A DNA stretch of 64,000 nucleotides from Candidatus Borrarchaeum weybense (GTDB taxonomy: Archaea > Asgardarchaeota > Sifarchaeia > Borrarchaeales > Borrarchaeaceae), in NCBI GenBank assembly GCA_019057385.1, contig JAHQJS010000006.1:517038-581037 (forward strand), in the 5' to 3' direction. The position numbers and the translations under genes were made by a program. Below the pieces are notes generated by a model. That model was given only the letters and a program-made list of their open reading frames with translations. It searched no databases and was not told the DNA's origin. This document shows positions 20,301 to 38,912 of the stretch, piece after piece. The first letter of the stretch is position 1. Every line of letters begins with the position of its first letter.

Positions 20301-21455
20301 GTGATGAAACGGACTTACCTATTTCGCTTGTATCCAACCATACAACAGACTACTACATTAATTCAATGGCTCACTACCTGTCGCATGTTATATAATAAGG
20401 GTTTGGCAGAGCGAAGAAATCAATGGGAAACTCATCAATACTCAGTTAACTATTGTGAGCAAGCCACTCAACTAACGGCTGCGAAACAGACTAACCATTT
20501 TTTGAAAGCGATTCACTCGCAAGTACTTCAAGACGTGCTGAGAAGACTGGATAAGACCTTCAAGAACTTCTTCAGGCGTATTAAGAAGGGTGAAAAAGTA
20601 GGATACCCACGCTTCAAAGGGAAAAACAGGTATGACTCCTTTACCTACCCTCAAAGCGGTTTTGTTCTTGAAAAGAAGAAACTTCGTCTCTCGAAAATCG
20701 GGGCTATTAACATCAAACTACACCGCTCGATACCAGCTGAAGGCGTGATCAAGACTTGTACCATTAAGCGAGATGTAGACCACTGGTATGCTTGTTTTTC
20801 GGTAGCACTTCCCGATCCCGAGTCGCAGAGGGAAATCCAGACAGCGATAGGGGTGGATGTCGGGTTGAAGAGTTTACTGACATTAAATAATGGGGGCACC
20901 ATAGCAAACCCCCGCTGGTTCAGAAACTCAGAGAAAAAATTAGCGAACGCACAACGAAGGAAAGATAGGAAAGTTATAGGTTCAAATAACCGTCACAAGC
21001 AGAACAAAAAGGTAGCACAACTACACAGGAAGATACGCCATCAGCGAAAGGATTTTCATCACAAGCTCAGTAGGAAACTGGTCGATAGCTATGACCTGAT
21101 CGTGTATGAAAACTTACAGATTACAAACATGGTAAAGAGCCATCATGTGGCCAAGTCGATTAGTGACGCCGGCTGGGGACAACTCATGTGTTTTACGGAG
21201 TACAAAGCGGAGGAAGCTGGTACTCTAGTAGAATATGTGAGTGCCTATAATACCACACAACTGTGCAGTAGTTGTGGGAAAGTTGTTCCGAAAACACTAG
21301 CAACACGTATCCACAGCTGTCCTTACTGCGGTCTTGATATAGCGAGAGACCATAACTCTGCAATCACAATTTTACACCGATCCCGCTATTATGGAGAATC
21401 ACAATCACAATTATCATCATCATCAGGGCAGGGACTGCCCGTAGAGCCTGTTTGA
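20301..21455 (+). CDS. tnpB: RNA-guided endonuclease TnpB
   Basis: RTYLFRLYPT HTH, GYPRFK, GVDVG (RuvC-I), VYENL (RuvC-II), SISDAGWG, CSSCG..CPYCG zinc finger, RDHNSA (RuvC-III). Confidence 0.96.
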   Translation: MMKRTYLFRLYPTIQQTTTLIQWLTTCRMLYNKGLAERRNQWETHQYSVNYCEQATQLTAAKQTNHFLKAIHSQVLQDVLRRLDKTFKNFFRRIKKGEKVGYPRFKGKNRYDSFTYPQSGFVLEKKKLRLSKIGAINIKLHRSIPAEGVIKTCTIKRDVDHWYACFSVALPDPESQREIQTAIGVDVGLKSLLTLNNGGTIANPRWFRNSEKKLANAQRRKDRKVIGSNNRHKQNKKVAQLHRKIRHQRKDFHHKLSRKLVDSYDLIVYENLQITNMVKSHHVAKSISDAGWGQLMCFTEYKAEEAGTLVEYVSAYNTTQLCSSCGKVVPKTLATRIHSCPYCGLDIARDHNSAITILHRSRYYGESQSQLSSSSGQGLPVEPV

Positions 21456-24740: not shown

Positions 24741-25366
24741 TGTAATTTCAGTTCATTATCAAAAGCAACAAAAACATCCTTTTGAAGTTCAATTAAATCT
24801 ATGCTTTCAAGGAGTCTTTTTGCCAAACTTTTGAACTCTTTAACTTTTTCATCCACTTCAGGTGATTCTTGCTGATTTGCAAGTTCCAGTAGCGTAGTGA
24901 TACCTAGTTTTTGAAAACGATTATTATATCTTCCTGCCTCAATGAGTCTGAAATCAACTAGTTGTTCTAAAGGTAACGCAACAGGTATTTTAATATCTAG
25001 AAGTTTGCTCGCAGCAACATATGCATGTTTATCCAAGTTATGCCATTCGTCAACTAAAATAGCATAATCACCATTAATTTTTATTGTAGCGAATTTATTG
25101 CGTGCAGCAGGCAGTATAGTCATCTTAAAATGTGAGCACTCACAAGCATAGCGCAAATATAATGTTCCTTTATAATGTTCCTTTGCAACCCATACGAGGT
25201 ACCCTAAACTGGTTTCGCTTTCAATAAGAGCTCTAGAAAGATTTTCTGAGTATTTTGTAACGCTTATCATCCTCCGGGTTGCAATATCTTTCCATCGTTT
25301 ATAGTCAATATAAACTTTAGAATACGGTATCATAACCCAGTTTTTTCTGGGAATTTTCCCATCCAA
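24737..25366 (-). CDS. Hypothetical protein with a SWIM-like Zn motif and a C-terminal HhH-like motif
   Basis: YACECSHF...LDKHAYVAA and RFQKLGITTLLELAN. The stop codon is supplied by the adjacent IS end. Confidence 0.6.
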   Translation of the reverse strand: MDGKIPRKNWVMIPYSKVYIDYKRWKDIATRRMISVTKYSENLSRALIESETSLGYLVWVAKEHYKGTLYLRYACECSHFKMTILPAARNKFATIKINGDYAILVDEWHNLDKHAYVAASKLLDIKIPVALPLEQLVDFRLIEAGRYNNRFQKLGITTLLELANQQESPEVDEKVKEFKSLAKRLLESIDLIELQKDVFVAFDNELKLQ

Positions 25367-25469
25367 CTACGATCCACACGCCCTGCAATTCAGTTTTACC
25401 AGTTCATTCCTTTTCATTAAGGCGCCATTTTGAAAAAATCATAAATTCAAAATTTTTCTATAACTGTTG

Positions 25470-25506
25470 GTTATATATATAACTTATAAACGGACTTTAT
25501 ATACCA
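25470..25506. promoter_or_regulatory. Putative divergent archaeal promoter region (TATA boxes) between the SWIM-like gene and tbp
   Basis: TTATATATATAA and TTTATATA boxes lie in the intergenic space between two divergent genes. Confidence 0.4.
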
Positions 25507-25609
25507 TTACTCCAGCGATCCATACTAAGTTTTTTCTACGGAAACTTAAAATCATGGTGGGGATTCTTAGCAAAAAATCAACAGTTTGTAGACATTTAGT
25601 TAAAAGTGG

Positions 25610-26274
25610 GTGGTTCTTATTACAAAACCAATAATTGAAGTCCAAAATGTAGTTGCTTCTGGCGAATTCGATCAAAAAATTGACCTTCTACATATAGCAG
25701 CATCATTAGACAGAGCGGAGTACAATCCTGAGAGCTTCCCAGGCTTAGTCCTGCGAGTTTCAGACCCCAAGGCGGTCTTTCTGCTTTTTAGCACAGGCAA
25801 ACTCGTCTGCACATTTAGGAGCCATCAGTTCTTAAAGCAGAATGGAGGTAAAAGTAAGGAAGACGTCTATGCGGCAATAGAAACGCTTGTAAAACAACTG
25901 AGAAGTATTGATATTAATGTAAATAGCCCTCCGAAGGTAAAAATCCAGAATATGGTCGCATCTGTTACCCTTGATTTCAGCATAAATTTAGAAACGATAG
26001 CACTGACTCTGGAGAACAGTCTATACCTTAAGAGACATTATTCTTCCTCTTAGGGAGGCAGATGAGCCAGAGCAGTTTCCAGGACTCATTTACAGGATGG
26101 CAGTGCCAAAGGTTGTTATCCTCATTTTTGGATCTGGAAAACTCGTCTGTACATTTAGTAGGTGTATTGCTCCTAAAGCAGAATGGAGCTAAAAGTGAGG
26201 AACAAATACACGAAGCCGTGGATATTCTTGTAAAAGAATTAAAGGAAATCGGAGCAACAGAAGAACCTAAATAG
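25610..26274 (+). CDS. tbp: TATA-box-binding protein with 4 exons (25610-25812, 25843-26024, 26062-26152, 26184-26274), 188 aa after splicing
   Basis: Both TBP repeats are present: [26 protein letters not shown]|GGKS and QNMVAS..ENSLY|[19 protein letters not shown]|GAKS. 665 nt minus 30+37+31 nt gives 567 nt, or 189 codons including TAG. Confidence 0.93.
25813..25842 (+). other. BHB intron 1 of tbp (30 nt, in frame)
   Basis: CTGC-ACA(bulge)-TTTAGGAGC-catca-GTTCTTAAA-GCAG-AAT(bulge). Cutting after the 2nd nt of each bulge gives TGC AC|T GGA (C-T-G). Confidence 0.88.
26025..26061 (+). other. BHB intron 2 of tbp (37 nt, contains an in-frame TAG)
   Basis: GTCT-ATA(bulge)-CCTTAAGAG..CTCTTAGGG-AGGC-AGA(bulge), with exon stems CA/TG and CTCTGG/CCAGAG. 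Splicing gives CTA T|AT GAG CCA (L-Y-E-P). Confidence 0.88.
26153..26183 (+). other. BHB intron 3 of tbp (31 nt, frameshifting)
   Basis: CTGT-ACA(bulge)-TTTAG..CTAAA-GCAG-AAT(bulge). Splicing gives TGT AC|T GGA GCT (C-T-G-A). Confidence 0.88.
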
Positions 26275-26411
26275 GAATTATTTAACACATTATTTCTTTT
26301 TTTTTATTTTCATTGCCTTACATTTTCATATACGCAAAATGGATAGATTAACTCCCCTTATTTCTTGTTTGAATTCAAAACCCTGTATTTTTGCATTTTT
26401 TTAGAGTTTTA

Positions 26412-36785: not shown

Positions 36786-36822
36786 TCTTGAAGTCAAAGA
36801 TTTTATTTAGGCAAGAATAGAA

Positions 36823-36868
36823 GTCAATTACCCCTCCCTGACGGAAGGGGTCTTCTCGCTGATATCAA
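36823..36868 (+). mobile_element. 46-bp IscB-type end-only mini element
   Basis: GTCAATTACCCC.CCCT..GGA.GGGG matches the IscB left end (first 12 nt identical). Followed by ATAAA. Confidence 0.7.
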
Positions 36869-38712: not shown

Positions 38713-38869
38713 TGAAATTTTGATTTTAGGCTTTGTTTTTGATTAAAAAAGTCAATAATGTTAAGTTACAACTTATACAAGACGATTAATATTCACAAGA
38801 TAATATGTGTTCTTATGTCGCGATATATTTTTTCTAGTGTTCATATACAATTGATTAAAAATTCTTAAC

Positions 38870-38912
38870 TAATCGGTGGGAAGCCCCCATCCTCCAGGGT
38901 GGGGTAGTTCAC
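38870..38912 (+). mobile_element. IS200/IS605 right-end remnant
   Basis: GGAAGCCCCCATCCTCCAGGGTGGGGTAGTTCAC has the same architecture as the tnpB right end at 21516. Confidence 0.65.

Follow-up and report, generated by a model that had tools for sequence, protein, structure and literature searches.

The gene for the TATA-binding protein (tbp) of 'Candidatus Borrarchaeum weybense', an Asgard archaeon, is very likely expressed through a pre-mRNA that carries three tRNA-type bulge-helix-bulge (BHB) mini-introns, which would be cut out by the tRNA splicing endonuclease EndA, with the exons being joined by RtcB. The gene occupies 25610-26274 (+) of the stretch of DNA analysed here, referred to as the window (64,000 nucleotides of contig JAHQJS010000006.1, positions 517,038 to 581,037 of the forward strand, assembly GCA_019057385.1; the source genome), and is made up of four exons separated by three inserts of 30, 37 and 31 nt. 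A multi-intron, protein-coding pre-mRNA had been proposed in a preliminary description made from the sequence alone, and this reading is now supported by comparison with close relatives, by selection acting on the spliced frame, by the shape of the BHB motifs at the insert boundaries and by two junctions found in a metatranscriptome.

Structure of the tbp gene and its spliced product

When the four exons listed in Table 1 are joined, a stop-free frame of 567 nt is obtained that encodes 188 amino acids and reads LVCT-GGKS, NSLY-EPEQF and LVCT-GAKS across its three junctions. The Pfam TBP family (PF00352) matches every exon, with profile positions that are continuous over all three junctions, and exon 2 is collinear with the orthologues. 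Removal of the inserts thus restores a conserved and selected frame, as is the case for the coding BHB introns of the cbf5 type. The unspliced read-through is still recognized as TBP by Pfam (82.6 bits). According to a profile search, this is the only tbp locus of the source genome (assembly of 4.18 Mb in 8 contigs, 100% completeness, 7% contamination). Hallmarks of group I or group II self-splicing introns and of inteins were not found in the inserts, which measure only 30-37 nt and two of which shift the frame.

Table 1. Features of the tbp locus, with positions in the window
Feature	Position	Strand	Description
Probable tbp promoter region with TATA box	25472..25491	+	AT-rich block conserved in all relatives (alignment); promoter role inferred
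50-nt extra leader segment	25570..25619	+	Diverged tandem duplicate of the tbp start region
tbp exon 1	25610..25812	+	GTG start; first TBP repeat to LVC-T; Pfam TBP E 6.6e-21, profile positions 2-62
Intron 1	25813..25842	+	30 nt, in frame, stop-free; CTGC/GCAG helix, bulges ACA and AAT, 9-bp intron stem
tbp exon 2	25843..26024	+	End of repeat 1 and start of repeat 2; Pfam TBP repeat-2 profile positions 2-30
Intron 2	26025..26061	+	37 nt, frame-shifting; GTCT/AGGC helix, bulges ATA and AGA, 9-bp stem, distal 6-bp exon stem CTCTGG/CCAGAG
tbp exon 3	26062..26152	+	Pfam TBP profile positions 34-62
Intron 3	26153..26183	+	31 nt, frame-shifting; CTGT/GCAG helix, bulges ACA and AAT, 5-bp intron stem
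tbp exon 4	26184..26274	+	Ends with TAG stop; Pfam TBP profile positions 64-84

The coordinates and lengths of the inserts, the stop-free frame with its restored motifs and the identity of the product as TBP had all been given correctly in the preliminary description, and its suspicion of an Asgard host agrees with the placement of the organism in the GTDB genus that also contains 'Ca. Borrarchaeum yapensis' and 'Ca. Sifarchaeum marinoarchaea' (Sifarchaeia, Borrarchaeaceae). It erred in expecting that annotation pipelines would call such a gene a pseudogene. The public records instead contain a 147-aa protein that stops inside intron 2 for the source gene (P0135, on a contig of 964,535 nt), and a 188-aa read-through with a frameshifted junk C-terminus for the related intron-bearing allele type of L054 (P0009). 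The exact spliced protein is found on a JGI contig of 1,182 nt (P0123), a record that does not discriminate between gene forms, since the intronless allele type represented by L116 encodes the same protein.

Distribution of the inserts and selection on the coding frame

All three inserts are absent from each of the four same-genus genomes compared (G001, G002, G003 and G004). The corresponding gaps (30, 37 and 31 nt) are clean, and the coding region of the alignment with these orthologues is otherwise free of indels. The inserts are likewise missing from the tbp gene of L116 (NCBI metagenome-assembled genome, MAG, GCA_019058535.1). Conversely, a 547-nt DNA contig from a marine-sediment run of 2015 (X3) spans introns 1 and 2 with 4 mismatches to the source, and related intron-bearing alleles were recovered from two JGI metagenomes (L054/L055), a further JGI sample (L117), an ENA assembly (L118) and a MAG contig at NCBI (P0009), so that inserts recur at these sites in four or more independent assemblies. 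A comparison of presence and absence had been suggested beforehand as a check on the introns, and it has come out in their favour. In the other intron-bearing alleles the three inserts measure 30/38/30 nt, as against 30/37/31 in the source; as the lengths differ between alleles, the frame is kept in the exons only and not through the inserts.

The spliced source gene differs from that of L054 at 51 of 567 positions, with a synonymous divergence (dS) of 0.43 and a ratio of nonsynonymous to synonymous divergence (dN/dS) of 0.044, the proteins being identical from residue 8 on. From the intronless L116 gene it differs at 61 of 567 positions, with 61 synonymous and 0 nonsynonymous changes, and the L116 product equals the 188-aa product of the spliced source gene letter for letter. 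Judged from these substitutions, intron-bearing and intronless alleles have both been constrained to the same protein. The source gene can be considered functional, since it is the sole tbp of a complete genome, its spliced frame is under purifying selection and its product is identical to that of L116. The preliminary description had named an intact tbp elsewhere, with this copy under relaxed selection, as a finding that would speak against splicing; an intact copy does exist, albeit only as an allele in a near-identical strain, and a dN/dS of at most 0.044 supports function and not relaxation.

The bulge-helix-bulge motifs

At all three sites, the last bases on the exon side pair with bases near the 3' end of the intron to form a 4-bp helix, which is completed by a 3-nt bulge 3' of each helix strand and by an intron hairpin (9, 9 and 5 bp), and a cut after the second base of the bulge restores the frame at three of three sites. 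The 4-bp helix, along with both 3-nt bulges on opposite strands, is also present at all sites of three further alleles. In a scan of both strands of the whole genome, the combination of helix, bulges and an intron stem of at least 3 bp was found at 1.3e-3 of all (position, length) pairs, a rate that falls to 1.8e-4 with an intron stem of at least 5 bp and to 4.2e-6 with one of at least 9 bp. Given these rates, the occurrence of the BHB shape at three exact frame-restoring boundaries lies far beyond chance. When three introns of two alleles were folded, the BHB-type fold was the minimum-energy structure in five of six cases (introns 1 and 2 of the source and all three of L054), with z-scores for intron plus flanks ranging from -2.0 to -3.5, the latter value belonging to intron 1.

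The proposed pairs are also largely preserved between alleles. About one in three positions of intron 2 varies, and all 19 of its proposed pairs are nevertheless kept (100% of cells): one C-G pair is replaced by U-A through a double change, and three pairs switch between G-U and A-U. Slid controls pair at 35-54%. In the family formed by introns 1 and 3, 92.5% of cells are paired versus 40-51% in slid controls, and the central helix is paired in five of five distinct sequences. Stem covariation had been proposed as a check on the motifs, and these allele comparisons are consistent with a BHB structure without proving it.

A genome-wide census of BHB introns was attempted by combining a motif scan with open reading frame (ORF) restoration and codon-usage scoring. 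True offsets gave as many candidates as shifted offsets (about 4,700 each), and the loose motif alone yielded 0.19 candidates per position, so that no census was obtained; the approach is uninformative, since matches to the loose motif turn up too often and neighbouring genes drown out any signal.

RNA evidence for removal of the inserts

Two joined contigs were found in the metatranscriptome X23. The first, of 151 nt, covers 25912-26024 and then 26062-26099, skipping 37 nt with a one-base positional ambiguity, and the second, likewise of 151 nt, covers 26085-26152 and then 26184-26266, skipping 31 nt without ambiguity; they show 3 and 1 mismatches, respectively, to the source sequence. The variants of the first contig (25918C, 25957T and 25966G) are those of the DNA contig X3-rec9, which carries introns 1 and 2. 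The intronless L116 allele, in contrast, deviates far more over the ranges of the two contigs (e.g., 11 differences within 25912-26024), and tbp contigs of the L116 type are present separately in the RNA runs X24 and X18. The haplotype match, taken together with the mismatches to L116, shows that the joined contigs do not stem from the L116 allele. They therefore provide evidence that is direct but thin for the excision of introns 2 and 3 from RNA at the predicted bonds. Junction reads had been suggested as a check on the introns, and two of the three expected junctions (CTAT-ATGAGCC and TGTAC-TGGAGC) are thus present in RNA-library contigs of this haplotype, the exception being TGCAC-TGGAGG of intron 1.

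Several points weigh against the splicing of three BHB introns and need to be set beside this evidence. The intron 1 junction lacks RNA cover: its region (25790-25857) is covered in none of the three RNA runs, which says nothing either way about its removal. The RNA support consists of two contigs of depth 2 and 151 nt from a single run, the sample of which differs from every DNA source of the haplotype, and RNA libraries can hold DNA. On the structural side, the exon-exon stems amount to just 1-2 contiguous pairs, with a 3-bp CTC/GAG stem or a distal 6-bp stem lying offset; the minimum-energy fold of intron 1 contains a 5-bp helix, which would misplace the 3' cut; and the BHB fold of source intron 3, at -8.7 kcal/mol, lies 2.8 kcal/mol above the minimum-energy fold of -11.5 kcal/mol. 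Finally, the covariation is drawn from 3-5 distinct sequences and carries no independent statistical weight.

Intron 1 deserves separate consideration, as it could conceivably be kept, at least in part, in a message from which introns 2 and 3 are spliced, resulting in an isoform of TBP whose LVCT-GG turn is longer by 10 residues. Such an isoform is suggested by an insert that is in frame and stop-free in every allele seen, by a junction without RNA cover and by the Pfam score of the read-through mentioned above, yet we regard it as improbable. Intron 1 has the best BHB of the three, both by z-score and by its 9-bp stem; it is the sister, and in L117 the identical copy, of intron 3, whose removal is required; and the intronless L116 allele encodes a protein without the corresponding residues. 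Moreover, its translation would give a peptide in which 5 of 10 residues vary between alleles, the protein being invariant otherwise, and which interrupts the LVCTG motif, itself invariant in all relatives. Thus, on account of its BHB, its kinship with intron 3, the variable peptide and the interrupted motif, we infer that intron 1 is excised as well.

Presumed splicing enzymes and alternative explanations

The source genome encodes two proteins with an EndA domain (PF01974), one alpha-like and the other beta-like, as well as two RtcB proteins (PF01139). The alpha-like EndA gene is located on contig C4 (L004:1156-1782), the beta-like one on C5 (L005:1420-2091, -), and one of the RtcB genes at C5:145777-147087. 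As one EndA keeps the catalytic Tyr, His and Lys residues and the other lacks the His (residues judged by inspection), the pair looks like an alpha and a beta subunit. Asgard EndA has been reported as an (alpha-beta)2 enzyme, with an L1 loop that is linked to broad specificity (PMC5829648), and alpha2beta2 enzymes have been described as lenient (PMC4090602). This is relevant to the shape of the tbp motifs. Measured against the strict hBHBh' form, the inner helix h' reaches 9, 9 and 5 bp at the three sites, and the outer helix h is reduced to the 1-2 contiguous pairs or the offset 3- or 6-bp stem described above. Because of these weak, short or offset outer stems and the weak points in folding, the motifs are classed here as relaxed BHBs. 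The helices, bulges and hairpins of the preliminary description stand, with the correction that the exon-exon stems are weak. In this relaxed form the motifs fit the HBh'-like forms accepted by alpha2beta2 enzymes (PMC4090602, PMC5829648), and by analogy they appear to match the type of EndA encoded in the source genome.

EndA and RtcB are therefore the presumed agents of tbp splicing. In the proposed mechanism, four bases of the upstream exon would pair at each site of the pre-mRNA with four others close to the intron's 3' end, with bulges and hairpin completing the BHB; a heteromeric (alpha-beta)2 EndA would cut after the second base of each bulge, and RtcB would join the exons, so that a normal TBP of 188 aa is encoded. 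None of the three introns could stay in the message, since a frameshift results from introns 2 and 3, and intron 1 would add 10 residues to the invariant LVCTG turn.

The weak outer helices, and the one site at which the BHB is not the minimum-energy fold, could also be accommodated if the inserts left the RNA by way of another nuclease-ligase pair, or if they were excised at the DNA level in part of the population. Either route is very unlikely: the junctions seen are placed as the BHB rule demands, behind the second base of the 3-nt bulges and with 4 bp between them (PMC4090602), the genome encodes both EndA and RtcB, inserts of the same kind occur in other genes, and every DNA contig of the haplotype retains the inserts. 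Still harder to maintain is the view of tbp as a decaying pseudogene, with joined contigs derived from intronless relatives. Intronless alleles do exist and are expressed, as the L116-type contigs in X24 and X18 attest, and the public annotation of the source gene shows a truncated product. A pseudogene is nonetheless excluded by the uniqueness of the gene in a complete genome, by the lack of nonsynonymous change between intron-bearing and intronless alleles together with the low dN/dS between intron-bearing lineages, and by the haplotype of the X23 contigs, which is the intron-bearing one. Assembly or sequencing artefacts, for which no supporting point was found and which the preliminary description had listed as a possible refutation, are excluded because the inserts recur in contigs of independent studies and assemblers (X3, two JGI metagenomes, the ENA assembly and the NCBI MAG).

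Probable origin of the introns and exchange of alleles

Introns 1 and 3 both follow the second base of the Thr codon of an LVCTG motif, in repeats 1 and 2 of TBP, respectively, and they share their first 6 and last 10 bases. In L117 the two are an identical 30-mer, and the bases 3' of site 1 correspond to the version of site 3 (A GGT G instead of T GGA G). Introns 1 and 3 are mutual copies, set at equivalent codons of the two TBP repeats by what would be ectopic gene conversion. The fact that exon bases moved together with the intron in L117 argues for conversion at the DNA level and against reverse splicing. Raised identity of the exon flanks between the two repeats was also considered as a sign of conversion in the source genome, and was discarded as not distinctive, the protein motif being conserved in all relatives. 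Apart from the 15 nt that introns 1 and 3 have in common, blastn-short found no copies of the introns elsewhere in the source genome.

The intron-bearing allele also seems to move between strains. The genes that flank tbp in L116 are about 99.5% identical to those of the source, whereas tbp itself differs by 10.8%, and the divergent region forms a sharp recombination tract at about 25200-26400. Intron-bearing and intronless alleles hence coexist in one species on a short recombination tract, and two old tbp alleles are kept or exchanged within that species. The source allele is itself a mosaic, with exons 2-4 differing by 4% from L054, and exon 1 by 18% from L054 and 8% from L116, from which it follows that the introns travel on recombining gene segments. 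Homologous recombination between strains would account for the exchange of the intron-bearing allele and for its coexistence with the intronless one.

A Pfam scan of about 200 other Asgard genomes revealed no obvious split tbp among the matches listed. In one of them (G014:C72:15911-16594; L110), the TBP gene contains in-frame extra stretches of about 39 and about 132 nt within a single frame of 285 aa, which could be either protein insertions or in-frame introns.

The tbp leader and inserts elsewhere in the genome

Upstream of tbp, the conserved, ancestral ATG at 25554 has been left by the 50-nt duplicate at the head of an upstream ORF (uORF) of 26 codons (25554-25634) that overlaps the GTG start of the gene. 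The extra leader segment (Table 1) is absent from G004 and G003 and present in G001_C50 and L116. L054 has no upstream copy of the ATG and shows an in-frame GTG at the equivalent place, with a mini-ORF of 3 codons whose TGA overlaps the GTG start; in L117 the uORF stops 4 nt upstream of a TTG start. The segment was considered as a fourth intron, as its removal would lead from the ATG at 25554 to a protein starting with MVGILITKP, as in the orthologues. This candidate was rejected: no BHB of frame-restoring length is present, a contig of the L116 allele type from the RNA library X18 runs through the segment, and L054 has the in-frame GTG and no upstream ATG copy. Thus, the segment is probably a leader duplication with a uORF and not an intron, and the arrangement may reflect translational coupling or a leader intron of a non-BHB kind.

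Over 15 kb of synteny around tbp, the three tbp inserts are the sole intragenic insertions relative to 'Ca. B. yapensis'. In an unbiased alignment of 238 kb with the same relative, 9 source-specific insertions of 10-200 nt were found, mostly intergenic, and just one of them is BHB-shaped and lies outside long ORFs. An insertion of 32 nt relative to G004 (C4:931924-931955, -) has a BHB-like shape with a TAGT/GCTG helix and a 6-bp inner stem, is likewise outside any long ORF and may be an intron in a non-coding RNA gene. A further BHB-like insertion, of 30 nt, with a CCGT/GCGG helix and TTA/AAT bulges, is located in secY (C5:281845-281874 = L057:10846-10875, -) and is absent from G004 and G003; it comes from a ribosomal-protein cluster of 20 kb that was chosen, and so does not form part of an unbiased sample. 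In relatives, this 20-kb cluster carries other insertions: one of 28 nt at a different place in secY of G002 (near L057:11003), and one of 37-39 nt in G001 and G003, near L057:13340, that is absent from the source. Introns in mRNA therefore exist elsewhere in the source genome but are sparse, and three of them within 0.57 kb form a marked cluster, for which the copying between sites 1 and 3 accounts in part.

Regarding tRNA genes, ARAGORN detected just 17 uninterrupted ones in the source assembly, a count that agrees with the heavy interruption reported for the tRNA genes of Borrarchaeaceae (bioRxiv 10.64898/2026.10.13.758758). As many as 12 of the 17 are located on contig C1 (179 kb), which contains a tight array of six uninterrupted tRNA genes together with the second RtcB gene (e.g., C1:19435-19896 and C1:13917-15008). 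A mobile element, a virus and the source of the 7% contamination estimate are all possible identities of this contig.

GC-rich intergenic hairpin inserts, each 44-46 nt long, occur at 36821-36866 and 38869-38912 of the window and at C6:391394-391437 and C6:417365-417410. 'Ca. B. yapensis' lacks them and has similar inserts of 32-48 nt at other places (L104:9727 and L105:13796); together they look like a family of miniature mobile elements. The intergenic segment 24536-24606 is absent from G001:C176, and its motif CTAAGCAAGAAAGCACCACAGCTTCAGCGTG recurs in a G004-specific insert (L105:13796-13843). A TnpB gene of the IS200/IS605 type, with OrfB_IS605 and Cas12f1-like TNB domains, is found at 20301-21455 (+), and a TnpB-type element of 1.39 kb (L057:14492-15878), of which the same-genus genomes hold dozens of copies, interrupts the ribosomal-protein cluster of the source.

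Comparison with known systems

The established case of a BHB intron in a protein gene is that of cbf5 in Crenarchaeota, described for Aeropyrum, Sulfolobales and Desulfurococcales (Watanabe 2002; Yoshinari 2006; Yokobori 2009, PMC2738675). A 2020 study of EndA substrates treats cbf5 as the sole such case besides an intron in a Haloferax 5' untranslated region (UTR) (PMC7714728), and where introns in protein genes are mentioned in papers from 2018 and 2025, the only studies referenced are those on cbf5 (2025: PMC12397907). Work on Asgard introns concerns tRNA (PMC11291895; bioRxiv 10.64898/2026.10.13.758758). In the literature searched, BHB introns were found neither in Asgard protein genes nor in TBP, and coding-sequence BHB introns only in cbf5, which bears out the earlier impression that no TBP case had been described.

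Both cbf5 and tbp have a short BHB-type intron inside the coding sequence that is present or absent among close relatives, and removal in both would be due to a hetero-oligomeric tRNA splicing endonuclease, which for tbp is the presumed enzyme. The differences are nevertheless considerable: cbf5 has one crenarchaeal intron, while tbp has three in a 567-nt gene for a general transcription factor of an Asgard archaeon, two of them being copies at equivalent sites of an internal repeat, with both kinds of allele occurring in one species. In host gene and intron number, tbp thus falls outside the cbf5 type. With the BHB introns of archaeal tRNA and rRNA, including those of the intron-rich Asgard tRNA genes, the tbp introns share the motif, the size range, the presumed enzymes and repeated recent gains; unlike these, they reside in an mRNA, in which the exon half of the motif also codes and the cut must restore a frame.

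Two further systems offer useful parallels. The BHB intron of 46 nt in the 5' UTR of Haloferax volcanii HVO_1309 is likewise an EndA substrate in an mRNA, as demonstrated by circular RNA sequencing and in vitro cleavage (PMC7714728), but the intron lies in a leader with no frame to restore. In HAC1/XBP1, as proposed for tbp, the mRNA of a transcription factor is cut at small stem-loops and ligated by proteins, independently of a spliceosome (PMC4090602), with the tRNA ligation machinery (tRNA ligase or RtcB) performing the joining and with removal changing the frame. The nuclease there, however, is Ire1, which acts on one regulated intron, and no homology of the sites is implied.

Implications

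If the tbp pre-mRNA is spliced as proposed, a core transcription factor would depend on three tRNA-style splicing events per message, and it would do so in the Asgard archaea, the archaeal group closest to eukaryotes. The locus makes visible a possible route of intron multiplication, by conversion from one internal repeat to another and by the exchange of alleles among strains, and it provides a testable system for the origin and persistence of split protein genes in the absence of a spliceosome. It also has a practical side, given that standard annotation silently mistranslates such genes, with the result that Asgard proteomes and completeness estimates are biased. As a tentative extension, possible though on balance doubtful, the tRNA-type introns of Asgard archaea might form a population that is spreading in protein genes by means of conversion between similar exon sites and of recombining alleles; expression of tbp would then depend on EndA and RtcB capacity, and mRNA splicing would be a routine, and possibly regulatory, step in these organisms.

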